A DNA stretch of 64,000 nt, taken from the NCBI GenBank assembly GCA_039795775.1, contig JBDKLC010000004.1:21982-85981 (forward strand), given 5' to 3'. The position numbers were made by a program, and so were the translations under genes. The stretch comes from Candidatus Parcubacteria bacterium. Its GTDB lineage: Bacteria; Patescibacteriota; Minisyncoccia; Phycocordibacterales; CAIZLB01. This document shows positions 15,542 through 28,047 of this stretch, in pieces. Every line of letters starts with the position of its first letter. The first letter of the stretch is position 1. The notes under the pieces are model-generated. The model saw only the letters and a list, made by a program, of their open reading frames with translations. It was not told the DNA's origin and did not search any database.

Positions 15542-17896
15542 ATGAAAACAAACCAAACACGTCTGATGTTGGCCGCCTTGTGGCTGCTAACTTTCTTCAC
15601 TGCAACTGCTCGCAGCGACACGATCAATGGCTATTATGGCTACACCGTGGCGCCCGCGCGCGATGATTATCCTGACTATCCGGTGTTCCAAACCTGGAGC
15701 ATTGATTTTCAGGGAAGTCTCTACAACGGAGCGGACTCGCCTAGCCAGGGGGTTCCGCATTCATATAAGCTCTTCCGTTCGGGAGGTATGCACGTTGAAG
15801 CTCATCGTCTCATCTCTTCGGTGACGACGCTCGGGCTATGGGAATCGGAGATCGACGCAAACCGTCCTCCGCTCCCTGGGGAGACACAACAAAATCCCTT
15901 CAATATCCAGAAAGGCAATCAACTCGTCCTCGGAATCCGGCTGCAAAGCCAAACCAAATTCCGACTTAAGGATATTGTCTATGGGGTGGGAACTACGAGT
16001 TCCTCTGGGATCTTCGGATACCAGAAAGACATGGCTGCACAAGCCACGTTTAAGATCCCATTCATTCTGGGCCGTTACTACGGAGCAGATGGCATCGCCG
16101 GCACGCCGGATGATGTCTCCTACGGAAACTTCACGCCGAATACGGCGCCGATCAACGAGATCACAATCATCATTGGTCAAGGCATAAACATGGATGCTGA
16201 GACCGGAACAACTGATGCTGAGCGTCTTCATAAAGCGCTTTCGAAATTCAACGAAGACTTCCAAGTCTGGGCCACCGCTAAGGTATGGCCCTACGATGAT
16301 TCGAGGACTACAACGCCTTTCGAGGTGACGGGTCCCCAGCTCACTGTTCTCGCGGTGAATCCCATCATTCGCACTGCTCCGACTTCACAATCGGCGCGGC
16401 GCGGACACAACGCTACCTTTACGGTGAGCGCGACAGGCAAAGACTTGAGTTACCAATGGTTCCGCGACGGGGCGACGATTGATGGTGCGACAAGCGCCAG
16501 CTACACAATCAGCTCAGTAACGGACGCCGACGATGCAGCACAACTGCGCGTAACGGTAACGAATAGTTTTGGTGAGGCAGTCAGCGATGACGTCTCGCTC
16601 ACGGTGACACCACCGTTTGCACCCACAGCTGTGACTGGTAGCGCCTCTGGCGTAACCACAAACAGTGCGGTGCTTTCGGGCACCGTGAACACCAACGAGG
16701 AACCCTCAACAGTCTGGTGGATAGAGTACGGGGACAACAACTCGTATTCGAATCTCACACCCCTGACGGCGCTTCAAACGTCGGCAGATATGCAACAAGT
16801 TTCGGTCGCCATCGGCGATTTGATTCCACGTCGGGACTACATGTTCCGGATCGTTGCACAAGGGCCAGGCGGCACAACCTACGGTGAAGATCACTTCTTT
16901 ACTACGGCGACGCCGACACAACCCTTCCTGGGTGTGAGCGGGACCTTCCAAGGTCTCATTGGTGATAATGGCGAGGGGATGATGAATATCACACTCGCCA
17001 AGACTGGTAAGTTTACTGCTGTAGTTTCCTTCGGGGGCAAGCGGTATAGCGTCAAAGGTCGTTTCGACAATGACGGCAAATTCTTGGTTCAGCTCGGCAA
17101 GTCCGGGTTGCTCCTGAGCTTGTCGCTCGATGTTTACGATACCGGCGAACTTACGGGTGGAATTGTTGGTGCAGGAGGTGGAGACGTTCAATTCGTCCGC
17201 CGCGCGGTGTATAGCCGCAAAAATCCAGCACCACAAACAGGGGACTACACCTTGCTTGCGCATCCGACGGAAATCGTCGGTCCAATTCCTCAGGGCGACG
17301 CGAGTCTGCTCATGAAGGTCACCAAAACCGGCCACGTTACACTGGTCGGTAAACTACCGGACAACACGCCAATCTCCCAAGGAGGAGCTCTGGCAACCGA
17401 TAACTCATTTCGCGTCTTCACTCGCCCCGGGCGAAAAGGCGTGATCGCTGGATTTGTGGCCTTCGAGGCTACGACCACAAAAGATCTCTCCGGAGATCTC
17501 TACTGGAACAAGCCAGCAAATGAGAAGGCAAAGCAGTATCCGCAAGGATTCGCTGCAAGCCTGTCGGCCGAAGGTTCTCGCTATGTCGCGGAGCCTTGGA
17601 CACAGTCGTGTCCGCCTGCTAGCCTCTCTCTTGAAAGAGGCAATCTTTTGAGCGAAATCAATCGTTCGCTCACCGGCACACCGAAGGGATTCGTTGTGCA
17701 AAACCCTGGAGGTGAAGGCCTTCAGTTGAAAAGAACAAGCAGAGGGTTGGTAACCGGGAGCTTCGTGCACCCGCTCACCAACAAACGTGTCCCATTGAGG
17801 GGCGTATTACTCCAGAAATCTGGAGGGGGTGGTGGCTACTTCGTAGGTCCTCAAGAGACCGGAAGTGTGGTTGTCGAGTTAGCTACTGGAATGTAG
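15542..17896 (+). CDS. Large secreted Ig-like plus FN3-like domain protein (adhesin-like), compositionally foreign
   Basis: 784 aa; signal peptide MKTNQTRLMLAALWLLTFFTATA; Ig I-set-like segment YQWFRDGATIDGATSASYTISSVTDADDAAQLRVTVTN; FN3-like segment; perfect SD AAGGAGGG 6 nt upstream; GC roughly 55% or higher against ~40% flanks. Confidence 0.6.
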   Translation: MKTNQTRLMLAALWLLTFFTATARSDTINGYYGYTVAPARDDYPDYPVFQTWSIDFQGSLYNGADSPSQGVPHSYKLFRSGGMHVEAHRLISSVTTLGLWESEIDANRPPLPGETQQNPFNIQKGNQLVLGIRLQSQTKFRLKDIVYGVGTTSSSGIFGYQKDMAAQATFKIPFILGRYYGADGIAGTPDDVSYGNFTPNTAPINEITIIIGQGINMDAETGTTDAERLHKALSKFNEDFQVWATAKVWPYDDSRTTTPFEVTGPQLTVLAVNPIIRTAPTSQSARRGHNATFTVSATGKDLSYQWFRDGATIDGATSASYTISSVTDADDAAQLRVTVTNSFGEAVSDDVSLTVTPPFAPTAVTGSASGVTTNSAVLSGTVNTNEEPSTVWWIEYGDNNSYSNLTPLTALQTSADMQQVSVAIGDLIPRRDYMFRIVAQGPGGTTYGEDHFFTTATPTQPFLGVSGTFQGLIGDNGEGMMNITLAKTGKFTAVVSFGGKRYSVKGRFDNDGKFLVQLGKSGLLLSLSLDVYDTGELTGGIVGAGGGDVQFVRRAVYSRKNPAPQTGDYTLLAHPTEIVGPIPQGDASLLMKVTKTGHVTLVGKLPDNTPISQGGALATDNSFRVFTRPGRKGVIAGFVAFEATTTKDLSGDLYWNKPANEKAKQYPQGFAASLSAEGSRYVAEPWTQSCPPASLSLERGNLLSEINRSLTGTPKGFVVQNPGGEGLQLKRTSRGLVTGSFVHPLTNKRVPLRGVLLQKSGGGGGYFVGPQETGSVVVELATGM

Positions 17897-18090: not shown

Positions 18091-18435
18091 ATGTTTATGA
18101 AAGAATCTCTCCGTACTTTTTTTAGAAATAATAAAAAACTCATTTTGAGCGTATTTATTGTCTGGGGTTTTGTTCTTATTGCTGTTCTTGTAGTAGCTGC
18201 ATATAGAAATAGTTTACAGCAGTCGAGTTTGACACCAAAAGTTCCTCCTGGATATATTGCTCCAATTCCTCAATCTAAAAAAGAACTTATTTTAAATGAA
18301 ACTGATCCGTATGCAGTACCTGTTATTATTTCTGACACTCAGAAACAAAAACTATTAAATAAGAAAGATACTGGAGCTATAAAAACACCAAATCTATCAA
18401 ACCAAGAGAAAGAATTAATTATTCAAGGAAATTAA
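18091..18435 (+). CDS. Hypothetical small membrane-anchored protein (first gene of pilus-associated operon)
   Basis: 114 aa; single N-terminal TM helix, no recognisable domain. Confidence 0.4.
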   Translation: MFMKESLRTFFRNNKKLILSVFIVWGFVLIAVLVVAAYRNSLQQSSLTPKVPPGYIAPIPQSKKELILNETDPYAVPVIISDTQKQKLLNKKDTGAIKTPNLSNQEKELIIQGN

Positions 18436-18438
18436 TTT

Positions 18439-19512
18439 ATGAAAAAGAAAATCACACTCGTAGTTCACTTTCTTTTGCTTCTCATACTTCTTGTTGGAGG
18501 AATTGCTGTTCATCGAACCGTAATGGCTCAGGTCTCAACAGGAAATGTCACAGGATGGGCATGGTCAGACAACATTGGATGGGTAAGTTTCAATTGTTCT
18601 GACGTCTCAGATTTGTGTACAACGGCTTCATATGGAGTAGATGCAGATCCAGACACTGGGGCTCTTTCTGGGTATGCTTGGTCGGAAAGTGTTGGATGGC
18701 TTAGTTTTAATCCAGGGGATACAGGAGGATGTCCTGATGGAACTAATTGTGAAGCTAAAGTAGATTTTGCTACAGGAAAAATTACTGGATATGCACGTTT
18801 TTGTTCGGCTACTGCCAATGGCAATTGTACTGGAGGTATAGGTCCAGATGGATGGGACGGTTGGTTGAAACTTTCTTCGCCAGGTTCACCAAGTCTTTCA
18901 TCTCCAGTACTCGATGGGTCACAAGGTGCAACATATGATGCAAATACAACAAAAATTATGGGATATGGATGGGGAGGTGATGTTGTTGGATGGCTCAAGT
19001 TTAATAATTCATACAACGGAGTAAAAATTACTATAGATGTAAATAATCTTAAATGTAAGATCGACGAAACTGAATTTGATCTCAATACATTTATTACACG
19101 GTATAAGACAGGAGTAGCAACATCCACAGAAGCTTGTGAGTCATACTCTTCAACTTGTGAACAAGTAACTCCAACAGAAGCTGACTGGAACACAGATATT
19201 ACACCTATAGCTGACGGAACATATTCATATAGTACATGTACAGTTTCTTCAAGTACTTCGTGTGCAGAAGGAAATAACCCTTGTGATATTTCTGCATATA
19301 CTCAGGGTACAAATCTAGGACAGACAATGTCGTGTGGTGAGCAACGAAAGTTTTATAAACAAAAAGTTGTAGTAAACAACGCTGCTGGAACTATCTCATG
19401 TGAATCAAATGGAAATGCCGCTGTGCGAGTATGTGACAACGGAGTACTTACAGGTGATTCTTCATTCAACAAAGTTATTTGTCGAGTGAATCCGTATCAG
19501 AAAGAGCGATAG
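18439..19512 (+). CDS. Secreted Cys-rich repeat protein with tandem GxAWSxxxGWxSFN repeats
   Basis: 357 aa; signal peptide; repeats TGWAWSDNIGWVSFN, SGYAWSESVGWLSFN, MGYGWGGDVVGWLKFN plus a degenerate copy; many Cys; start overlaps previous stop by 4 nt (operonic). Confidence 0.5.
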   Translation: MKKKITLVVHFLLLLILLVGGIAVHRTVMAQVSTGNVTGWAWSDNIGWVSFNCSDVSDLCTTASYGVDADPDTGALSGYAWSESVGWLSFNPGDTGGCPDGTNCEAKVDFATGKITGYARFCSATANGNCTGGIGPDGWDGWLKLSSPGSPSLSSPVLDGSQGATYDANTTKIMGYGWGGDVVGWLKFNNSYNGVKITIDVNNLKCKIDETEFDLNTFITRYKTGVATSTEACESYSSTCEQVTPTEADWNTDITPIADGTYSYSTCTVSSSTSCAEGNNPCDISAYTQGTNLGQTMSCGEQRKFYKQKVVVNNAAGTISCESNGNAAVRVCDNGVLTGDSSFNKVICRVNPYQKER

Positions 19513-19586
19513 AAAATAAAAGTATCTGGGGAAACTCAGATACTTTTGTTGTAAGTTTGGTATAATTATTGAGATAACACATTAAC

Positions 19587-20549
19587 ATGATGAAACAAGT
19601 AGTACATATAATAAAAGTAATAATAATTGTTGGAGTATTGTTGGTTGGAGGACAATATCTCTATGCCTTTGGTCCGACATGTGCTCCACCAGATTGTAAC
19701 TCTGATGCTCCTATCAATGCGAGTTCAACTGATCAGATTAAGACAGGAGGTCTTACTATAGGTAAGAATATGTTTATTCAAGGAGCTACATGGGTTACGG
19801 GTCTCGACCCACAAGATAACGTTACTCCTCTCCAAATAGGTCTCGTTGTTCAAAACGGCCAAGTGTTGCTCGGTACAACAACACCAGTGGCGAACGCATC
19901 TAGTACTATGAGACTTGTTGTAAATGGTGGAGCTGGAGCGAGTGAATTCTGTGATCCAAGTGGAGTAAATTGTATTCCGTGGGATGCTTTGTACGATAGT
20001 GTATACAGTCCAGGTGGTTTCAACTGTTCTTCTGTTCCAACATTTACTACGTTGTACAATAAAGAGACAGGATATTACTTCAATCAACCTGTATTTGGAG
20101 AAAGTGGATACTACGGTGCTTCGTCTGCTCGAGGTTGGCAAAAAGTGAGCATGCCAGCTGCATGTTCAGAACCTGATGGTTGTATTATTCGAACAAAGAT
20201 TTATAAACGATATTCTGTACCAGGTTGGACATGTAATAACAGTGGTTGTACAGGTTGGTACGAAGATAAGCTGTATAAGATTACTGATACTGAATATCGA
20301 CAAGAAGCTGGTTCTGGTGCTCAGCTTTGGTGGAGTGCCTTCTCTACAAGTGGAAAACTCAAAAACGGCGATACTACGTCTTCAAACATTACATCAGGTG
20401 CTGGATCAATTGAATCTGGTGCATACAACCTCAGAGATGATCGAAATGCAACACTTTCTGCAGATGATGAACTCTCAAATGCACAATGGAGTCCATTTGA
20501 CAGTACTCGAAGTTACGGAGCAGAAGTATTTGTTTGTACAAACTCATAG
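19587..20549 (+). CDS. Hypothetical signal-anchored Cys-rich protein upstream of pilB
   Basis: 320 aa; N-terminal hydrophobic helix VIIIVGVLLVGG, paired Cys throughout; hairpin terminator at 20577-20615. Confidence 0.45.
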   Translation: MMKQVVHIIKVIIIVGVLLVGGQYLYAFGPTCAPPDCNSDAPINASSTDQIKTGGLTIGKNMFIQGATWVTGLDPQDNVTPLQIGLVVQNGQVLLGTTTPVANASSTMRLVVNGGAGASEFCDPSGVNCIPWDALYDSVYSPGGFNCSSVPTFTTLYNKETGYYFNQPVFGESGYYGASSARGWQKVSMPAACSEPDGCIIRTKIYKRYSVPGWTCNNSGCTGWYEDKLYKITDTEYRQEAGSGAQLWWSAFSTSGKLKNGDTTSSNITSGAGSIESGAYNLRDDRNATLSADDELSNAQWSPFDSTRSYGAEVFVCTNS

Positions 20550-20666
20550 GTATTGTTTCTCTCAATTAAATATCAAAAAGAAAACATCCGGATAACTTCC
20601 GGATGTTTTCTTTTTGTGTACTTCTACTTCTGATATAATAAGAACGTATTTGAAAAAATAATTTTC

Positions 20667-22424
20667 ATGTTTCTCGAACCTACCCAATTAAAAAAGTTTA
20701 TTTCAGACTCAGGTCTTGTTACTCAAGACGATATTACTGCTGCAGAAAAAGTAGCTGAAGAAAAGAAGCAAAATCTCGGTGAAGCCCTAGTGTCTGCCGG
20801 AAAGATTACAGAAGACGATTATCGACGAATCCAAGCGTACCTCATTGGTATTCCATTCGTAGACCTCAAGAGTCAAAAGCTTGAATTTGATGTGCTTTCG
20901 CTTATTCCGGAACCTATTGCTCGAAATCACAATATCGTAGCTATTAAGAAGAAGGACAATGCTCTTGAAGTAGCCATGCTTGATACAGACGACCTCTCTG
21001 CGATCGACTTCATCAAAAAGAAGACTGGCCTCAAAGTTCTTCCTCGACTTACAAACACTGAGTCAATGCGTGCTGCTCTTATTCAGTACCAAAAGAGTTT
21101 GAAAGCTGACTTCGGAGATATCATTCAACAAGAAGCATCATCTCTCAAGATGGTAGCTCAAGACTCTGCGCCAGGGGAGGAAGTATCAGGAGACGACCTC
21201 AAGAAGCTCGCTGAAGACTTGCCTGTAGTACGTATTGTGGACACATTGCTCAAGCATGCAGCTCTCCAAGGTGCATCAGATATTCATATAGAACAGATGG
21301 AAAATGAAGTAGTCGTACGATATCGAATCGACGGTATGCTTCGAGATGCCATGATTTTGCCTAAAGCAGCCGGCGCAAGTATCACTGCTCGTATCAAAGT
21401 ACTCTCGAACCTCAAGCTCGACGAAAAACGACTCCCACAGGACGGACGATTCAAGATTGAACTCAATGATGAAAAGATTTCGTTCCGAGTATCTATTTTG
21501 CCTACATATTATGGTGAAAAGACTGTAATGCGACTTTTGCGAGAAAGTGTATCTGGGTTCTCACTCGAAACTCTTGGCTTCCACGGACAGGGTCTTGAAG
21601 CTATTCATGATGGAACACAAATGACAGAAGGTATGATGCTTACCACTGGTCCTACTGGTTCTGGTAAGACAACGACACTCTATACAGTGCTCGATCTCCT
21701 CAACACACCTGATGTAAACATCTCTACAGTAGAAGATCCAGTTGAATATCAGATGAAACGAGTAAATCAGACACAAGTAAAACCTGAAATCGGATTTACA
21801 TTCTCTTCAGGTCTCCGATCTCTTCTCCGACAAGACCCAGACATCATTATGGTGGGAGAAATTCGAGATAACGAAACAGCGTCACTTGCTATTAATGCGG
21901 CCCTCACAGGTCACGTAGTGCTCTCTACGCTTCACACCAACTCAGCAGCGGGTGCTATCCCACGACTTATTGATATGAAGTGTGAGCCGTTCCTTCTTGT
22001 ATCTACACTCAAGGTGGTAGTAGCGCAACGACTTGTGCGACGACTGAGTAAAGCAAAAGAAGAATATTTCCTTACAAAAGACGAATTGGCTTCTATTAAA
22101 AAGAAAATTGACATGGATCGAGTACTCAAGGCTCTCAAAGATGAAAAAATTGTAAAGCCTGATGCTGAATGGAAAGACATTCCACTGTATCGACCGAAAG
22201 CTGACAAAGATTCTGACGATGGCTACCACGGCCGAGTTGGTATTCATGAAGTTCTCAAGATGAGTACACCCATTAAAGAATTGATTATTAAGGGTGGCAC
22301 ATCTGACCAAATTGAAGAACAAGCAAAGAAGGAAGGTATGCTTACGATGATTGAAGACGGTGTATTCCAGGCGGTACAAGGGATGACATCGATTGAAGAA
22401 ATCTTGCGAGTAGTTTCTGAATAA
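20667..22424 (+). CDS. pilB: Type IV pilus assembly ATPase PilB (GspE family)
   Basis: 585 aa; N-terminal GSPII_E_N-like domain, Walker A TTGPTGSGKTTTL, Asp/His boxes of secretion ATPases. Confidence 0.85.
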   Translation: MFLEPTQLKKFISDSGLVTQDDITAAEKVAEEKKQNLGEALVSAGKITEDDYRRIQAYLIGIPFVDLKSQKLEFDVLSLIPEPIARNHNIVAIKKKDNALEVAMLDTDDLSAIDFIKKKTGLKVLPRLTNTESMRAALIQYQKSLKADFGDIIQQEASSLKMVAQDSAPGEEVSGDDLKKLAEDLPVVRIVDTLLKHAALQGASDIHIEQMENEVVVRYRIDGMLRDAMILPKAAGASITARIKVLSNLKLDEKRLPQDGRFKIELNDEKISFRVSILPTYYGEKTVMRLLRESVSGFSLETLGFHGQGLEAIHDGTQMTEGMMLTTGPTGSGKTTTLYTVLDLLNTPDVNISTVEDPVEYQMKRVNQTQVKPEIGFTFSSGLRSLLRQDPDIIMVGEIRDNETASLAINAALTGHVVLSTLHTNSAAGAIPRLIDMKCEPFLLVSTLKVVVAQRLVRRLSKAKEEYFLTKDELASIKKKIDMDRVLKALKDEKIVKPDAEWKDIPLYRPKADKDSDDGYHGRVGIHEVLKMSTPIKELIIKGGTSDQIEEQAKKEGMLTMIEDGVFQAVQGMTSIEEILRVVSE

Positions 22425-22466: not shown

Positions 22467-23678
22467 ATGAAATTTTCGTACACGGCTAAAAAGCCTGATG
22501 GCTCAACATACGACAGTACAATGGAAGCTGCTGATAAAGCTGCCTTCTATCGTGAACTACGAAAAATAGGTGATACTCTGATTAGTGTAAAGGAAGGGAA
22601 GAAAAGTGTTGGACAAATGGAAATTAACCTTCCATTTCTCAATCGTATAAAAATGATCGATAAGATCACGTTTGCTCGAAACATTAGTGGAATGCTCGAA
22701 GCTGGATTGCCACTCTCTCGTGCCTTAGCAGTATCTGAAAGACAAGCTTCAAATGTAAAACTCAAAAAGATTTATAAAGAGATCAACGAGTTTATTACAT
22801 CTGGTAAAACATTTCATGAAGCATTGGCACAGCATCCAAAGGTGTATTCAAGTCTCTTTATCTCAATGGTAAAAGCTGGCGAAGAAAGTGGAGATCTCGC
22901 AGGTTCTCTCAAGCATCTCGCTTCACAGATGGAAAAAACATACGTTATTCAGCGAAAGATTAAAGGTGCCATGATGTATCCAGGTATTATTCTTTCAGTT
23001 ATGGTACTCATCGGTATTTTGATGATGATTTTCGTAGTGCCGGCACTTACAAAGACATTTAAGGATTTGGGTACAAAGCTTCCAGCTTCTACTACATTTA
23101 TTATTGCTACAAGCGACTTTGCCTCAAATCATTACATCTTGTTAGTTCTTATCATTTTGGCAGCCGTCGTTGTCTTTATCTTGCTCCTTAAGACAAAAAT
23201 TGGTAAACGATACGCAGATTTTATTGTGTTACACTTGCCGGTTATTTCACTTATTGTAAAAGAGAGTAATGCTGCACGAACAGCTCGAACGCTTTCGTCA
23301 CTTCTTTCGGCTGGTGTTGATTTGCTCCTCGCGGTAAAGATCACTGGTGAAGTAATGCAAAACTCATTTTATAAAGAAGTTCTTCAGAGAACTGAAGTAG
23401 CTGTAGAAAAGGGGGACCCAGTATCAAAAATCTTTGAAGAAGAAACAAATTTGTATCCAGTATTCGTAGGAGAAATGATGAGTGTGGGTGAAGAAACTGG
23501 TAAATTTGCTTCAATGCTTACTGGTGTAGCTGTGTTCTATGAAAACGAAGTAGAAGAAAAAACAAAAGATCTTTCTACTATTATCGAACCAGTACTTATG
23601 GTGATTATCGGTGCCGGTGTAGGATTCTTCGCTGTCTCTATGATTATGCCGATGTATTCAGTGATGAATAATTTGTAA
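22467..23678 (+). CDS. pilC: Type IV pilus inner-membrane platform protein PilC (GspF family)
   Basis: 403 aa; duplicated GspF domains with three TM segments. Confidence 0.85.
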   Translation: MKFSYTAKKPDGSTYDSTMEAADKAAFYRELRKIGDTLISVKEGKKSVGQMEINLPFLNRIKMIDKITFARNISGMLEAGLPLSRALAVSERQASNVKLKKIYKEINEFITSGKTFHEALAQHPKVYSSLFISMVKAGEESGDLAGSLKHLASQMEKTYVIQRKIKGAMMYPGIILSVMVLIGILMMIFVVPALTKTFKDLGTKLPASTTFIIATSDFASNHYILLVLIILAAVVVFILLLKTKIGKRYADFIVLHLPVISLIVKESNAARTARTLSSLLSAGVDLLLAVKITGEVMQNSFYKEVLQRTEVAVEKGDPVSKIFEEETNLYPVFVGEMMSVGEETGKFASMLTGVAVFYENEVEEKTKDLSTIIEPVLMVIIGAGVGFFAVSMIMPMYSVMNNL

Positions 23679-23710: not shown

Positions 23711-24055
23711 ATGAAGAAAATAAAAACTATATCTAAAGCGATCGTTGGAACATTTTGTGTATATGTGTTGGGTATGCTCATGACTACATCTCCAGTAGAT
23801 GCCGTAATGCGAGCAAATTTTCCTGATGCCAACCAACTTCAACCACTTCCACAGTCTATAGCCCCAAGTCCAAAGGGGAATATAAATGCTACACATAAAG
23901 TAGCTCCCGACGTACAAAAAAATCCTGCACCAGTAGAGGAGGCAACGACTTCTCCAATACAAAAAGCCGAGGGTTTCTCTCTCCCTTGGCTTATAAGTAC
24001 GCTCTCTGTTGTTTTGTTAGTAATTGCTTTGACTCTCGTTCTCAAAAAGAAATAA
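23711..24055 (+). CDS. Small secreted protein with C-terminal hydrophobic anchor and KKK tail
   Basis: 114 aa; N-terminal signal, Pro-rich middle, C-terminus FSLPWLISTLSVVLLVIALTLVLKKK. Confidence 0.4.
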   Translation: MKKIKTISKAIVGTFCVYVLGMLMTTSPVDAVMRANFPDANQLQPLPQSIAPSPKGNINATHKVAPDVQKNPAPVEEATTSPIQKAEGFSLPWLISTLSVVLLVIALTLVLKKK

Positions 24056-24068
24056 TCTTTATTTCTCT

Positions 24069-25454
24069 TTAATTACTTGTCCAACTGAGTGGTTGATATC
24101 CTGAACTTGAAAGAGGAAAGCTTGGTGGTGCCGCGTAGAGAAGATTACTATCATATGTACTTTCTGTTGTCTGATATCCGGATGTAACATCATCTGAGCC
24201 ATTGACCCATGTCCATGTCCACTGACCGAATGTCATAATCGATCCGTACACTGTGATTTTATTTTTAATTTCACCTGAATAGAAAAAGAATTGTGCACTT
24301 CCGTTTTGAGCAATAAGTGCGGCGTCTATTTCGAGGTCATCAGGTGCTCTGTATGTCACCACGATATCTTTTTGTGCAAGAAGGCCAAGAGAATGATTAC
24401 CATCTTTTGCGAGGTAGGTAATATTATTTGGAATATAGATTGTTGGAGCGGTTGCTGCATTATAAGGGAGTTTTGATGCCGCAACCATGACACGTCCATT
24501 TACTACACCTTCTACCCACACGTTATCTTCGATATATATAATCCCGTTCGATGGAATAGCTTGGGTTGAAAGAAGTGTTCTGTTTTTATAGTCAATATCT
24601 TCGTTTCGTGCGTTTCCTGCAACATCCCAACCTGATGGTGTAGACCAAACACTTGTTACCTTGTAGATGCTTACAGTACCGTTTGAGTTGAATACGAGAG
24701 AATATCCTTGGCTGTTTGATGGAGCGAGATAAATACCGCCTGATTGTGCGTTTGCTTTCATACCAGCGAGGTTTGATGTGAGGGCAGAGAAGTCTACGGC
24801 CGGTACAGGATACTGCCAGAAATTTTTTGTTGTTTGGTTTGCGCTTCCCCAAATGCCAGCTTTTGTTGTAGGACAAGGACTTCCTTGTGAAGAAGGACAA
24901 CTATAAGTAGATTTTGCCGATGTAATAGGAGCATTTCCTGTTCCATCGAATCGAATTCCGTTATTAGACTTGAGCTGACCGTTAACTGTTTCATTGTCGC
25001 CCACCCAGATGACTGCATTTGTAAGGAAAGAGTATTGTGCAAGGGAAGGGATACCGTATTTTGCAGTAATTGTTCGCTTTATTTGCGGCTGATCTGTAGT
25101 CCAGCCAGTAGAAGAAATAGTGACTACAGTAGAGCCTGTTGGTGGAGGTGTGATAGTGAGACTGTATGTGCCGAGAACTTTTTGAGTATCAGTATCGACA
25201 TAGTTTCTAATATATGGACCAGATGTAGCTGTACCGTTTGTGTAGTCAGTTGGATAGTGAGCCAATCGCCACTGATAGTAGTTAATACCAGCCTCAGCAA
25301 TTTGTAGAGCCTGTTCTTTTGAAACAGTGGTAGCAAGTACTCGTGTTCGGATGACAAGCGATTGAATGATAGGCATCATCATCAACGAAAATATAAAGAT
25401 GACGATAAGAAGTAACACTAATATTTCTCCACGTTGTTTGTTTTGATGAGCCAT
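24069..25454 (-). CDS. Large pilus-associated protein (PilX/minor-pilin-like), N-terminal hydrophobic anchor
   Basis: 461 aa; N-terminus RGEILVLLLIVIFIFSL hydrophobic helix, Thr/Ser/Asn/Gly-rich remainder; co-oriented with two prepilin genes upstream. Confidence 0.4.
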   Translation of the reverse strand: MAHQNKQRGEILVLLLIVIFIFSLMMMPIIQSLVIRTRVLATTVSKEQALQIAEAGINYYQWRLAHYPTDYTNGTATSGPYIRNYVDTDTQKVLGTYSLTITPPPTGSTVVTISSTGWTTDQPQIKRTITAKYGIPSLAQYSFLTNAVIWVGDNETVNGQLKSNNGIRFDGTGNAPITSAKSTYSCPSSQGSPCPTTKAGIWGSANQTTKNFWQYPVPAVDFSALTSNLAGMKANAQSGGIYLAPSNSQGYSLVFNSNGTVSIYKVTSVWSTPSGWDVAGNARNEDIDYKNRTLLSTQAIPSNGIIYIEDNVWVEGVVNGRVMVAASKLPYNAATAPTIYIPNNITYLAKDGNHSLGLLAQKDIVVTYRAPDDLEIDAALIAQNGSAQFFFYSGEIKNKITVYGSIMTFGQWTWTWVNGSDDVTSGYQTTESTYDSNLLYAAPPSFPLSSSGYQPLSWTSN

Positions 25455-25459
25455 CTAAT

Positions 25460-26113
25460 TTAGTTTCCTAAGTTTGTTTTTAAGCTTCGAAGTGTTCCAC
25501 CGGCTTGAATTGTATACGTCGTTGTCGCTGTTCGAATATTTTGTACCTTAACGAGTAGATTCATTTTAGCAAATTTTACCTGAGTGATGTTCACAGGTTG
25601 TGTAAGTGCAGATGTTGTTCCTGCATATGTATCAGCATAGTAATAAAATATTGGTGTTGATGTCCCGTTAGAAACATCAGTGAGTACAGTAGAAACTGTT
25701 TCAGAAGCAGAGTTGTATGTCAGCGGATTTCCAGACGGTGTAATAATGCCTTTGAAAAGAGAAGTGCCTGAAAGATAATAACGAACACGTCGTACAGTTG
25801 TAGAGCTGTTTGAGCCGAATGTTGTGTAAAGAATAATTTGAGATGAACTTGCATCATTGAGAGCCGCCGCACCATTATTTGCCGTTGTAGAGTTCCGTAA
25901 TTCGTTCGAAAAGTTAAAGACTACCAATCGAGCCTGATCAACGCCGTTGATTGCTTTTGTTTGTTGAGTAGATGTAACAAATATTTCTCGGAGCATTGTT
26001 GTAGCTCCAAGCATGATGATTGAGAATATACCGATAGTTACTACTGTTTCTACAAGTGTGTAACCAGGCATATATGACCGTGCATATTTTTTTGAACTTA
26101 TTTTCATGTGCAA
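25460..26113 (-). CDS. Type IV pilin-like protein (prepilin-type N-terminal cleavage/methylation domain)
   Basis: 217 aa; PGYTLVETVVTIGIFSIIM matches the class III signal (G|[FY]TLxE plus hydrophobic helix). Confidence 0.65.
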   Translation of the reverse strand: MHMKISSKKYARSYMPGYTLVETVVTIGIFSIIMLGATTMLREIFVTSTQQTKAINGVDQARLVVFNFSNELRNSTTANNGAAALNDASSSQIILYTTFGSNSSTTVRRVRYYLSGTSLFKGIITPSGNPLTYNSASETVSTVLTDVSNGTSTPIFYYYADTYAGTTSALTQPVNITQVKFAKMNLLVKVQNIRTATTTYTIQAGGTLRSLKTNLGN

Positions 26114-26122
26114 TATGTTTGC

Positions 26123-27916
26123 CTAAGAACTAAGCAACACTGTAAGTACATTATATCCGCTTATGTTCAAATTTGTTACTGTCTTTGTTGTATAACCTGT
26201 CATAGATGTTTGCACTTGATAGTCATTTGCAGCACTGAGTCCAGGGAACATAACTTGTCCCGGAGTAAAGCAACCTGATACATAGTTCACATCGAGGCTT
26301 GTAAGTACGGGTGTAACTGTTGTTGTACTGTTACTAAGATATGCTTTGTATCGAAGATATCGGTTATTGTTGTGAACACTACTAATAGATGTACCTGGCA
26401 CCGTGTAGTAGGTAGTTGAGGCACCATCTGGACCTAAGAAATTCCACGTAGTAGTCGAACCATCGTTACTTGAGGCAATTTGGAATCGTAGGGTTGTTGA
26501 AGCTGTTTGAGACTGAGGTTCCCAGTTGAGAGTCGTATAGAGGGTTGATGTTGAACCAGAATCAAATGTAGAAGACTGCAACCAGCCTGATGATGAATAA
26601 ACACCGAATGTTTTCTTGAGTCGTACACCAGTAGGGAGAGTAGCTGTATCAATATTTCCATCATTTGAGAAATACATAGTACTTGTACCCATATTTGCTT
26701 GTCCTACACCACCTGTCCAATCTTGTTGAGAGAAGGCACTACCGCCAGTAATAAGAGTATCGTCATACCCAGATCGTGTGAGTCGTACATTTGCTCCTTC
26801 GATAGCCACTCCAGTTGCAGCATCTTTTACAATTACCAAAAGACTATTTGTTGTTATAGGGCCAACAATAAGGTTAAAGTTCTGAGATGTCTGAGGAAGG
26901 ATGTTAATTTGCTGGATAGGAGATGATCCATAAATCATATAACTTGAAGTAGAGAGTGCTGGGGTATAGTTGTCCCATTCAATATTTGAAAGCACCACTT
27001 GGCCACTACCGTTTGATGTATAGGTATTATTAAACTTGTAGACACTCGGAGTACCAATGATTTTTGCACCTTTTACCCCGATTCCGACATTTGATAGAGG
27101 TGCACAGCTCTGGTTGAGGGTATTAAAGGTAAGATTACTCAACTTATCGATAGAAAAACTGATTTGAGTCACTGTTCCATTCAAAATCGTAGCATCTGGC
27201 TTAGTTGGGTTAGGGTTTCCAACTGAGACAGGATATGTCTGATCTGAAGAATACCCTGTTTTTGTAGCAGTTACATGATAGTTATTTGAACTCTGAGGGA
27301 GACCCACTTCTGTCCAGTAGCCATTGGCATCAGTGGTTCGGGTAATGTTGATATCTGGGGTTAAAGCCGTATTTGTGATGTTTATTTGGGCTCCAGGCAC
27401 AGGCTGACCTACGGCGTCGAATACTTGTACTGTAAAAGCACCCGCATTATTGGTGTTTTCAAGACCTGCTGGGGTGATATTAGTAACAAATGTTGTTACT
27501 ACGTTAGTTCGGGTGTTTTTTATGTTTAATTTGACCTGTTTGTAGTCTGTTGGGGCAGGATCAGTGCTTGACGCGATTGTTCCATCTGCTGGGTCGTCTA
27601 CAAAGCTACTTTCATAGTAGATTTGATAGGTAATGTTGTTATAGCTTGTCGATGTGGCATTTGGAAGGTCTACAAGGATACCAGTCGGGTTACCGTTTAC
27701 GGTACCAACCTGGCTATAGGGAAGGTTTCTAACAATTTCCATATACTGAGCAGCGAGATTTGAAATAGTAGTGTTTTCTCGATACACACCCGCGAGCTTA
27801 ATAATAAGCGTACTTGTAGAGTAGACAGTAAGAGCGAGCCCAGCAAAAATACCGATACTAATAAGTGTTTCAATTAAAGTAAATCCTTTTTGATTTCTAG
27901 AGATAGAACGTTTCAT
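26123..27916 (-). CDS. Large type IV pilin (prepilin N-terminus plus ~560-aa Thr/Ser/Asn-rich domain)
   Basis: KGFTLIETLISIGIFAGLALT canonical prepilin motif; start placed at MKRSIS within ORF 26123-28006. Confidence 0.7.
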   Translation of the reverse strand: MKRSISRNQKGFTLIETLISIGIFAGLALTVYSTSTLIIKLAGVYRENTTISNLAAQYMEIVRNLPYSQVGTVNGNPTGILVDLPNATSTSYNNITYQIYYESSFVDDPADGTIASSTDPAPTDYKQVKLNIKNTRTNVVTTFVTNITPAGLENTNNAGAFTVQVFDAVGQPVPGAQINITNTALTPDINITRTTDANGYWTEVGLPQSSNNYHVTATKTGYSSDQTYPVSVGNPNPTKPDATILNGTVTQISFSIDKLSNLTFNTLNQSCAPLSNVGIGVKGAKIIGTPSVYKFNNTYTSNGSGQVVLSNIEWDNYTPALSTSSYMIYGSSPIQQINILPQTSQNFNLIVGPITTNSLLVIVKDAATGVAIEGANVRLTRSGYDDTLITGGSAFSQQDWTGGVGQANMGTSTMYFSNDGNIDTATLPTGVRLKKTFGVYSSSGWLQSSTFDSGSTSTLYTTLNWEPQSQTASTTLRFQIASSNDGSTTTWNFLGPDGASTTYYTVPGTSISSVHNNNRYLRYKAYLSNSTTTVTPVLTSLDVNYVSGCFTPGQVMFPGLSAANDYQVQTSMTGYTTKTVTNLNISGYNVLTVLLSS

Positions 27917-28047
27917 TGAGGTTTGGAGAACTGAGTAAATTTTACCACATATGTGAGATGTGTGTGGAGCAAAATGATGTGGTCTGGTGTGTATTTTGAG
28001 GTACAACTATCTCCCGTCTATTTCTTACATCTGCTATAATTTCGAAC

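Follow-up and report, generated by a model that had tools for sequence, protein, structure and literature searches.

What is the exported, Cys- and Trp-rich protein encoded at 18439..19512 of the window (the whole 64-kb stretch of DNA analysed here), does it belong to a known family, and how might it act at the cell surface? An identical protein (P0001) carries the annotation 'hypothetical protein RL094_163, Candidatus Parcubacteria bacterium', and the target locus was also found in an independent Logan assembly. The gene and the parts of its product are as follows.

18439..19512, + strand: target open reading frame of 357 amino acids, with 16 Cys and 10 Trp
18439..18528, + strand: putative Sec-type signal peptide, residues 1-30, composed of MKKK, a hydrophobic core and V-M-A/Q (slash, cleavage point), recognised by sequence inspection and the family pattern
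18541..19041, + strand: conserved four-hairpin Trp-rich module, residues 35-201, the family-defining domain of ~165 amino acids
18547..18594, + strand: hairpin of unit 1, residues 37-52, VTGWAWSDNIGWVSFN, followed by a C53-C60 loop
18664..18711, + strand: hairpin of unit 2, residues 76-91, LSGYAWSESVGWLSFN, followed by a C98-C104 loop
18781..18876, + strand: degenerate hairpin of unit 3, residues 115-146, ITGYARFC...GWDGWLKLS, with a turn insertion bounded by C122-C130
18955..19005, + strand: hairpin of unit 4, residues 173-189, IMGYGWGGDVVGWLKFN
19042..19479, + strand: lineage-specific Cys-rich C-terminal region, residues 202-347, with 9 Cys, the variable part of the protein
19480..19509, + strand: C-terminal tail, residues 348-357 (CRVNPYQKER), conserved and corresponding to a shifted form of the tail motif of the family

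Both the open reading frame and the fourfold repeat proved genuine, far beyond chance. The hairpin cores lie at residues 39-51 (GWAWSDNIGWVSF), 78-90 (GYAWSESVGWLSF) and 175-188 (GYGWGGDVVGWLKF), and the degenerate third core, at residues 117-145 (GYARFC...GWDGWLKL), carries a Cys-stapled insertion in its turn, so that the spacing from core to core is 39, 39 and 58 residues. The pattern G[WY].W.{3,5}GW occurs three times in the target, and just 17 of 20,000 composition-preserving shuffles contained it at least once. In a profile-profile comparison across the family, R1 matched R2 at E=1e-23, R2 matched R4 at E=2e-19 and R1 matched R4 at E=7e-16, and R3 matched the other units only as two half-hairpins (E of about 1e-4). 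The sequence-only reading, which had described four copies of a repeat with one of them degenerate, was thus borne out, with profile matches among R1, R2 and R4 on the order of 1e-16 to 1e-23. The units are not repeats at the DNA level, indicating that the duplication is old.

Each unit has three elements: a beta-hairpin rich in Trp, with the sequence G-[YW]-A-W-S-x-N-[IV]-G-W-[IV]-S-F; a short linker stapled by a disulfide; and a 'YGV' strand. Eight residues (G39, W42, G47, W48, G86, W87, G117 and W185) are invariant across 109 homologues, and the linker cysteines are kept in pairs, 53/60 in 88 of the 109 and 98/104 in 81-82 of them, with an optional pair, 122/130, present in 33-34. The earlier claim that every repeat is followed by a Cys-containing linker holds for units 1 and 2 and fails for unit 3, where the Cys pair is inside the hairpin. 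MdbA/VKOR-type disulfide machinery is enriched in CPR bacteria (PMC6744442). An AF2 model of the module, a check that the same reading had proposed, was all-beta and compact, with about 15 short strands (pLDDT 89.2, pTM 0.86), and in this model the four units are predicted to fold jointly into one domain.

Next to the repeat, the protein had been described as secreted and Cys-rich, and its Sec-type signal and 16 Cys agree with this. Among family signal peptides, 97% have K/R within the first 12 residues and the hydrophobic run has a median of 18 residues; the [AV]xA Sec cleavage site falls 7-8 residues ahead of hairpin 1 (206 family members), the family pattern being [AV]-x-A at -10/-8 relative to the first hairpin Gly, which in the target reads V-M-A/Q. 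Pfam hmmscan found no pilin-type N_methyl motif in the target, and the neighbouring pilin-like genes do match. A TM-like segment beyond residue 70 is missing from 117/120 homologues, and an LPXTG-like string is present in only 2/120. Sortase- or exosortase-type sorting, with a motif, a TM helix and a basic tail, was rejected, as the conserved tail ends the protein and all but 3 of the 120 homologues lack the TM helix. Judged from its sequence, the target has neither a membrane anchor nor a sortase or pilin signal.

Searches for known relatives of this protein returned very little. With hmmscan (E<=1), nothing relevant to the target was found in Pfam or NCBIfam; a Pfam scan of 109 homologues (E<=1e-3) gave no match on the module; a profile search with the module gave none among PDB sequences; and Foldseek gave none at E<0.3 against PDB (full-length and domain models) or BFVD. 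The best Foldseek TM scores, 0.33-0.39, were to 8-stranded barrels (GID4, HphA, TbpB) and are not taken as evidence. PHROGs yielded only a 12-residue noise match for the target, and no description of the family was found in the literature on its motif strings and on CPR surface and pilus proteins. Several individual candidates were rejected as well. A beta-propeller, suggested by the sequence-only reading and taken here to have at least four four-stranded blades round an axis and typically at least 200-300 amino acids, was not supported, the module being a single compact domain of only 165 amino acids whose Foldseek propeller alignments reached TM 0.14-0.15 at E>=0.75. The Asp-box motif is SxDxGxTW; the turn of the module, S-[DE]-N-[IV]-G-W, is spaced differently, and there was no BNR match in Pfam. 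Membership in PilY1/Neisseria_PilC found no support (no PF05567 match in Pfam and no propeller similarity by Foldseek), nor did membership in CW_binding_1 (PF01473), unmatched by the target at E<=1 and by the 109 homologues at E<=1e-3. A phage origin of the module was rejected, with tblastn against 50,697 phage records empty, and so was a DGR-diversified surface protein, a kind often met in CPR, since no TR/VR-like repeats were present and the repeat pairs of the window were tRNA genes or chance matches. The conclusion that the protein falls in no named family therefore stands, given the blank Pfam and NCBIfam results for the target and the 109 homologues without a module match, and the module is best read as a new, unnamed domain family of unproven function.

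This family is large: it comprises more than 8,000 clusters of 50% identity at E<=1e-10 and at least 591 species genomes, and all named sources of its members are Patescibacteria. In 97% of members the module starts ahead of residue 80, and 197/229 proteins have a single copy of it, with the number of units per module fixed at four. In some giant homologues it is internal or near the C-terminus, a placement equally compatible with a role in binding and with one in anchoring, and the giants preserve, at their C-terminal end, an unbroken unit in which 150-300 amino acids separate the module from the tail. What follows the module in relatives (Ig_Rha78A_N, PKD, CARDB, Big_7, fn3, DUF4215 or Cys-rich repeats) is always either a beta-sandwich of the stalk or adhesion kind or an orphan sequence, never an enzyme or a toxin. 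The C-terminal region of the target was found, among the sequences compared, only in P0002 (67%), P0003 and L001 (49%), and the AF2 model of the full-length target is of low confidence past residue 259. A search with the C-terminal 162 amino acids against a set of 5.8 billion proteins gave zero matches and missed its own cluster too, and is hence uninformative; kinship of this domain with the protein encoded downstream was rejected (BLASTP E=0.43).

The tail is the second conserved element of the family, with the form Px[FYW][KQE]E[FIL]-COOH, also summarised as Px[FYW]xE[FI]-COOH. In its strict form it is carried by 84/120 homologues, 53/78 complete locus copies and 68/109 further representatives, compared with 11/533 other neighbouring ORFs and 0/54 ORFs of the fibre family described below. 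It is thus family-specific, and its absence from other secreted neighbours argues against a general sorting signal. Across three orthologues with an overall identity of 50-64% the last 11 residues are identical.

The genes and structures that immediately flank the target are as follows.

18091..18435, + strand: small single-pass membrane 'leader' protein of 114 amino acids, in which a single TM helix precedes three degenerate [ST]xEEKxxILxSL-type repeats
19518..19547: palindromic hairpin (11 bp) directly past the target stop, found by the consensus scan in minus orientation only
19587..20549, + strand: secreted fibre-like partner of 320 amino acids, whose signal peptide precedes a mature N-terminus, FGPTCAPPDCNSDAPINASSTDQIKTGGL, that is conserved in its family
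20574..20616: second palindromic hairpin (19 bp), in the interval that separates pilB from the gene of the fibre-like protein

In the window copy of the leader the repeats read KKELILNE, QKQKLLNK and QEKELIIQ; its stop codon lies 3 nt ahead of the target ATG, and AAGGAA is found inside its 3' end. The leader matched no family in Pfam or NCBIfam. An iterated HMM placed the leader family in 45/80 related loci, with the window copy at E=9e-19, and 34 of 39 same-strand matches abut either a target-family gene (18) or a fibre-family gene (16). The gap from leader to target is -23 to 27 nt in the 17 abutting loci, and the leader is within 4 kb in 34. The coupling to an upstream membrane protein that had been claimed for this locus is hence confirmed, the tight leader junction being conserved across the family. 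Counting against a tether, the leader was detected beside the target in no more than about one to two fifths of the loci, so it cannot be the universal anchor unless it has diverged beyond detection. The hairpin at 19518-19547 may be a terminator or a transcript-end structure.

Fibre-like proteins, with the consensus AWTGPxxxPPxxNxxAPINxGxxxQxKxGxL, are the commonest neighbours of all: 58 ORFs in 44/80 loci, always on the same strand and mostly at positions -1, +1 and +2. Long members carry a Peptidase_S74 tail-fibre chaperone domain and GNVGIGT-type fibre repeats; the window copy matched nothing in Pfam or PHROGs. Like phage tail fibres (Peptidase_S74), the family combines a conserved N-terminus with a variable distal part, but it is cellular and Sec-exported and has a distinct N-terminus, AWTGPxxxPPxxNxxAPINxG. 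Rosetta-stone fusions of the module with the N-terminal motif of the fibre family were sought and found in 0/238. The family-wide partners of the target are the membrane leader and the fibre-like proteins, not the pilus genes.

Tentatively, we propose that the target is a modular surface or adhesion protein of Parcubacteria/Paceibacteria, exported via Sec, stabilised by disulfides and displayed non-covalently. Cleavage of the signal peptide would make the conserved ~165-aa module the mature N-terminus, with the interchangeable, lineage-specific region after it and the short conserved tail at the end. The module, possibly with the tail, would form the docking end and hold the protein non-covalently on the envelope of its producer; the likeliest docking partner would be the coupled single-pass membrane protein with its three EEKxxILxSL repeats, and the alternative a cell-wall or S-layer glycan. 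The variable region would face outward and bind a host cell, prey or substrate. Instead of being displayed, the protein could also be released into the medium.

Of the competing explanations, the most probable, though still unlikely, is a carbohydrate-binding module. It would act as a lectin or wall-binding domain, like the choline-binding, GW and SLH anchors, on a glycan of either the producer or the host. Beta-hairpins arranged in tandem and bearing invariant Gly-Trp and aromatic residues suggest this, as do the absence of a covalent or membrane anchor and the position of the module right after the signal peptide and ahead of variable domains, which resembles known non-covalent anchors. However, no carbohydrate- or wall-binding family in Pfam was matched even at E<=1, the lectin matches of Foldseek were insignificant (TM 0.2-0.25, E>4), the copy number is fixed at four in one compact predicted domain rather than an open solenoid, and the Trp residues may belong to the core rather than bind a ligand. 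The choline-binding repeats (CW_binding_1; pneumococcal LytA and PspA) provide the best analogy for a non-covalent anchor, as they share with the module tandem beta-hairpins, Gly and Trp/Tyr, export, the lack of a covalent anchor and the pairing of a conserved repeat block with variable functional domains. They differ in that the period of the module is 39-58 amino acids and not about 20, that their HMM does not match, that the module is N-terminal, and that their arrays are long, variable in number and wound as an open superhelix, whereas the module has exactly four disulfide-stapled units and is predicted to be compact. SLH triplets and GW modules likewise share few fixed repeats beside the signal peptide and many paralogues with the same anchor and a different payload, but their folds are different (helical for SLH, SH3-like for GW) and no sequence or Pfam match links them to the module.

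A pilus-associated adhesin, as had been suggested for the target, is rather improbable. In this explanation the target, a non-pilin with a PilY1-like role, would attach to the tip complex of minor pilins, for example via its conserved C-terminal strand, so that its variable domain is exposed at the pilus tip. The pilus genes of the window, listed here as context only, are the following.

20667..22424, + strand: PilB-type assembly ATPase (T2SSE and MshEN; Pfam E=4e-120)
22467..23678, + strand: PilC-type platform protein (T2SSF; Pfam E=8e-53)
24069-25454, 25460-26113 and 26123-28006, - strand: three genes for pilin-like proteins that carry PilX_N or N-terminal methylation motifs, the last also with a CarboxypepD_reg module

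The genes at 24069..28006 are candidates for modular pilins of the pilus encoded alongside. The target does not lie directly upstream of pilB, as had been stated; the 320-aa ORF (19587..20549) and two palindromic hairpins intervene. Nor are homologues always beside pilB/pilC, a check that the sequence-only reading had called for: of the 46 loci whose downstream sequence spans at least 8 kb, 16 have pilB downstream on the same strand at a distance of 0.2-6.5 kb, compared with 3/47 that have it upstream. This frequency lends some support to a pilus link, since chance alone should place pilB within 10 kb on either side in a few percent of cases if the genome is ~1 Mb (an estimate, not a measurement), and so do the adjoining pilB, pilC and pilin-like genes of the window, several loci that keep the pilB linkage without a detected nusA, and three rearranged loci (L026, L031 and L047) in which the gene is still <7 kb from pilB. 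Yet pilB is downstream in 8/9 nusA-linked loci and in only 2/26 loci without nusA, and the linkage could therefore be inherited gene order. Furthermore, the signal is of Sec type and not of pilin type, the target is outside the minor-pilin operon, which lies on the opposite strand, the adjacent pilins are modular themselves (the CarboxypepD_reg graft) and could supply the adhesin function, and the leader and the fibre family are stronger, family-wide partners. PilY1/PilC tip adhesins share with the target Sec export, a non-pilin nature and a gene near pilus genes; the target differs in having no Pfam or propeller match, in its place outside the minor-pilin operon and in a pilB linkage largely confined to one syntenic block. 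The pilus link is thus not family-wide and rests largely on gene order in one lineage block (nusA-X-pilBC), and it should not be extended to the family at large. Under our preferred reading, a non-covalently displayed surface protein, the cassette of the window lineage is part of a conserved nusA-[cassette]-pilB-pilC-pilins block and may therefore act together with type IV pili in attachment.

It is still less probable, in our judgement, that the module, the tail, the leader and the fibre-like neighbours together constitute an undescribed, Patescibacteria-specific surface-appendage system, in which the membrane tether would nucleate docking or head-to-tail polymerisation via insertion of a strand between module and tail. 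If true, this system would be a non-pilin attachment fibre by which episymbionts hold their hosts.

That the target is a self-assembling fibre subunit, its tail serving as a donor strand into the next N-terminal module or into a fibre-like partner and its filament standing on the small membrane protein, we consider very improbable. Module and tail are inherited together whatever stands between them, as seen also in the intact C-terminal unit of the giants; the tail is not found on other secreted neighbours, and orthologues share it unchanged although their C-terminal domains have only 49-67% identity. Against this, the case is purely architectural, the tail has a pLDDT of about 50 in the AF2 monomer, and about 30-40% of members miss the strict motif. 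The logic of a conserved acceptor domain and a terminal strand framing a variable body is shared with donor-strand pili (chaperone-usher, and type V of Bacteroidia), but the target is not homologous to them and lacks a lipoprotein signal, an usher and an Rgp-type processing site.

Finally, it is scarcely credible that the target is an ordinary member of a characterised repeat family (choline-binding, BNR/Asp-box, MORN or beta-propeller blades) missed by reading, for the superficial likeness to aromatic hairpin repeats and the Asp-box-like turn are set against Pfam, NCBIfam, homologue, PDB profile and Foldseek searches that all came back without a relevant match.

Patescibacteria/CPR account for a large part of bacterial diversity and spend their lives attached to other cells; to our knowledge, their attachment machinery, with the exception of type IV pili, is almost unknown. 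The module described here marks thousands of exported proteins and combines a confident predicted fold without a detectable relative with conserved gene partners. It thus offers a handle, both as a candidate Pfam-level family and as a target for structure determination, and it raises the testable hypothesis that these bacteria may expose variable binding proteins on their surface with neither sortase nor lipid anchors.

We analysed the following features of the window:

18439..19512, plus strand: target ORF, 357 aa
18091..18435, plus strand: leader, a small membrane protein of 114 aa with one TM helix
19587..20549, plus strand: member of the fibre-like family, with its conserved mature N-terminus

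The target is identical to a database protein named 'hypothetical protein RL094_163, Candidatus Parcubacteria bacterium', and an independent Logan assembly contains the same locus. It holds 10 Trp and 16 Cys residues, with three near-identical hairpin cores (residues 39-51, 78-90 and 175-188) and a degenerate one (residues 117-145) that carries an insertion bounded by Cys in its turn. The protein contains three instances of G[WY].W.{3,5}GW, a pattern present at least once in just 17 of 20,000 shuffled versions of its sequence. When the four units (R1 to R4, R3 being the degenerate copy) were excised from the 109-sequence family alignment and compared profile against profile, R1 matched R2 at E=1e-23, R2 matched R4 at E=2e-19 and R1 matched R4 at E=7e-16, and R3 matched as two half-hairpins only; a repeat search of the window found no DNA-level repetition left among them. 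Core positions, shuffles and unit profiles thus confirm the sequence-only reading of a repeat with three near-identical copies and one degenerate; the Cys linker that it placed after every unit does not hold for unit 3, whose Cys pair sits within the hairpin.

The four units form a module (residues ~35-201) with the family consensus NLSGYAWSDNIGWISFNC..C..YGV...G.LSGYAWSDNIGWISFN..GCP.G.C.A...G...GWARAL...GWDGWI.LS...YGV...F.GYAWGSDVVGW.SF...GV, in which G39, W42, G47, W48, G86, W87, G117 and W185 are invariant across 109 sequences. In the family alignment Cys residues are kept as pairs (53/60, 98/104 and an optional 122/130), a pattern from which it follows that the protein is extracytoplasmic and stapled by short disulfides. 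Ahead of hairpin 1, 206 members show a basic N-terminus, an 18-residue hydrophobic run and [AV]-x-A (V-M-A before Q in the query), which by sequence rules puts the predicted mature start 7-8 residues before that hairpin. AlphaFold2 with the family alignment modelled residues 31-201 as all-beta, with ~15 short strands (pLDDT 89.2, pTM 0.86). In the full-length model confidence was confined to the module part, and the C-terminal 100 residues, for which there are only two orthologues, were for that reason modelled poorly.

The family is large. A word-indexed search gave 568 clusters at 90% identity, and an exhaustive profile search of 50%-identity representatives gave 12,419 (E<=1e-3), 8,336 (E<=1e-10) and 3,924 (E<=1e-30), counts which include some representatives attracted by generic Ig/PKD columns; the module was present in 109 of 118 new top representatives. 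At least 591 genomes carried the family in a GTDB scan of one genome per species, and the organism names among the matches listed were all Patescibacteria, mainly Parcubacteria/Paceibacteria lineages (Nealson-, Yanofsky-, Taylor-, Kaiser-, Niyogi-, Yonath- and Portnoybacteria). Most proteins have one module (197, against 18 with two and three in 2), and in 97% of members the first begins ahead of residue 80.

What follows the module varies. Query residues 196-357 are common only to its two orthologues among the sequences compared, and the corresponding region of other members matches Ig_Rha78A_N, PKD, CARDB, Big_7, fn3, SprB, DUF4215 or nothing recognisable; Pfam found no enzyme or toxin domains in these post-module regions. 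No TM-like segment occurs beyond residue 70 in 117 of 120 homologues, and an LPXTG-like string in just 2 of 120. The family also has a conserved C-terminus, which the sequence-only reading did not mention. Present irrespective of the preceding domain, it is ...[IVN]-P-x-[FYW]-[KQE]-E-[FIL]-COOH (PGFKEF, PVYKEF, PIFEEF or PTYQEI, for example), in extended form W[KR]E[IV]xP[FR], and WKEIxPF in PKD-containing members. A strict regex for this tail matched 84 of 120 homologues; among complete locus copies it matched 53 of 78, and among further representatives 68 of 109. It matched 0 of 54 fibre-family ORFs and 11 of 533 other neighbouring ORFs, and those few are cytoplasmic proteins matching by chance. 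The query tail, CRVNPYQKER, is a variant shifted by one residue (compare CRIKPVYKEF and CRLNPNFKEF), and it does not differ between orthologues with just 49-67% identity in their C-terminal domains. In giant homologues the unit of module, 150-300 aa and tail is intact at the C-terminal end, and thus module and tail act as a single frame round a variable insert. The tail (window 19480-19509; C-termini of the homologues P0002-P0238) has no TM helix after it and is absent from neighbouring secreted proteins; docking strand, processing site and PDZ-type ligand are candidate roles.

Genomic context was drawn from 80 related loci. The commonest neighbour is a Sec-exported fibre-like family (58 ORFs in 44 loci), always co-oriented with the module gene and mostly at positions -1, +1 or +2, whose mature N-terminus is invariant (AWTGPxxxPPxxNxxAPINxGxxxQxKxGxL) and whose distal parts are variable and fibre-like; a Peptidase_S74 tail-fibre chaperone terminates its long members. 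This family has no name, its variable regions carry GNVGIGT repeats and its genes are frequently in tandem copies. The leader belongs to a fast-evolving, single-pass family, with no match in Pfam or NCBIfam, in which three tandem [ST]xEEKxxILxSLS repeats follow the TM helix; most members are ~105-150 aa (at loci L022 7082-7423, L063 2826-3164 and L055 9458-9862, for instance). An iterated HMM found it in 45 of the 80 loci (window copy, E=9e-19), and of 39 same-strand matches 18 lie immediately upstream of, and abut, a module-family gene and 16 a fibre-family gene; weaker minus-strand matches beside trigger factor may be false positives. Between leader and target gene the gap is -23 to 27 nt in 17 loci. 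The translational coupling to a preceding membrane protein noticed in the window is thus borne out as a conserved feature, common also to the fibre genes. Perfect palindromic hairpins directly follow the stop codons of the target (19518-19547, 11 bp stem) and the fibre-like gene (20574-20616, 19 bp stem), which suggests that transcripts end separately, or are processed, at these sites inside an apparent operon upstream of pilB.

Family members combine an export signal, a compact, disulfide-paired Trp-hairpin module at the mature N-terminus, an interchangeable adhesion-type or orphan middle and a family-specific C-terminal tail, without covalent or membrane anchor and with conserved coupling to leader and fibre-like proteins. 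Tentatively, we suggest that the invariant parts would be docking elements and the variable part an outward-facing binder, the same logic as in SLH, choline-binding or phage-fibre proteins. As tether, the co-encoded leader would be the most economical choice, because it precedes both secreted families, each with a conserved mature N-terminus, and because that is the end emerging beside the membrane.

The closest analogy to the module is with the repeat anchors that hold Gram-positive surface proteins non-covalently. A module binding glycan or wall would be close in spirit to docking on the leader, with another partner; we consider it rather unlikely.

A PilY1-like accessory adhesin of the pilus draws on the position of pilB, which lies downstream of the target, not directly as first read: a 320-aa ORF and the two palindromic hairpins intervene. 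The window follows a recurrent order, nusA(-) / module gene / (fibre) / pilB / pilC / pilins / tpiA / pgk, and pilB is downstream in 8 of 9 nusA-linked loci with enough sequence, whereas it is so in 2 of 26 without nusA. Across the family pilB lies within 10 kb of the module gene in 21 of 80 loci. Of 46 loci with at least 8 kb of sequence on the downstream side, 16 have pilB there; on the upstream side the count is 3 of 47, and pilB-linked copies are spread over several clades of a rough NJ tree. The linkage is real at the window's orthologous position, is not a family property and is inseparable from inherited gene order. The pilus-associated adhesin of the sequence-only reading keeps that local linkage, which argues weakly for it, and a PilY1-like role is distinctly unlikely. 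At one locus (L070 9875-15111) two tandem module-family paralogues, each with its own small TM leader gene ahead, lie between nusA and tpiA/pgk in an otherwise conserved block lacking pilB/pilC; the cassette therefore persists without adjacent pilus genes.

Three pilin-like genes (24069-28006, minus strand) include a 627-aa protein with an N_methyl motif and a CarboxypepD_reg/prealbumin-like graft and a 461-aa PilX_N-like protein, and these modular pilins could themselves be pilus adhesins; the window ORFs scanned yielded no pilM/N/O, pilT or pilD. Between pilC and these convergent genes, a 114-aa ORF (23711-24055, plus strand) encodes a signal-like segment at its N-terminus and a TM helix at its C-terminus; Pfam, NCBIfam and PHROGs gave it no family, and the 80 loci no homologue at E<1e-5. 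A 784-aa exported protein (15542-17896, plus strand) has Ig-like and fn3-like matches, and in PHROGs it matches phage tail and Hoc-like decoration proteins in their Ig-like parts. Its gene has a GC of 0.54 vs 0.405 for the genome, and its orthologue at locus L001, in the same place between nusA and the cassette, 0.53 vs 0.407. Mis-assembly was ruled out by its presence in the independent Logan assembly, and it is either a foreign gene long retained without amelioration or one under composition constraint.

A fibre self-assembling by donor-strand is very improbable. That the module belongs, unrecognised, to some known repeat family has next to no likelihood: no family was found in Pfam and NCBIfam (query, E<=1) or PHROGs, nor any relative when a profile was run against every PDB chain sequence, in Foldseek against PDB (full-length and module models) or BFVD, or by tblastn against phage genomes, and Pfam matches in each of 109 homologues all fell after the module. 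CW_binding_1, BNR, propeller, pilin, PilY1 and sortase-substrate identities failed on every testable membership feature, and the beta-propeller once suggested goes with them. The repeat lies outside any named family, as first supposed. Domain family and partner families are both new, inside a kind of system that is familiar, modular exported surface proteins.

CPR bacteria are enriched for MdbA/VKOR disulfide machinery and T4P (PMC6744442), which fits an oxidised, surface-located protein set. With a large, lineage-defining family, whose function we infer, an orphan predicted fold and a conserved cassette, the attachment biology of Patescibacteria becomes more testable.
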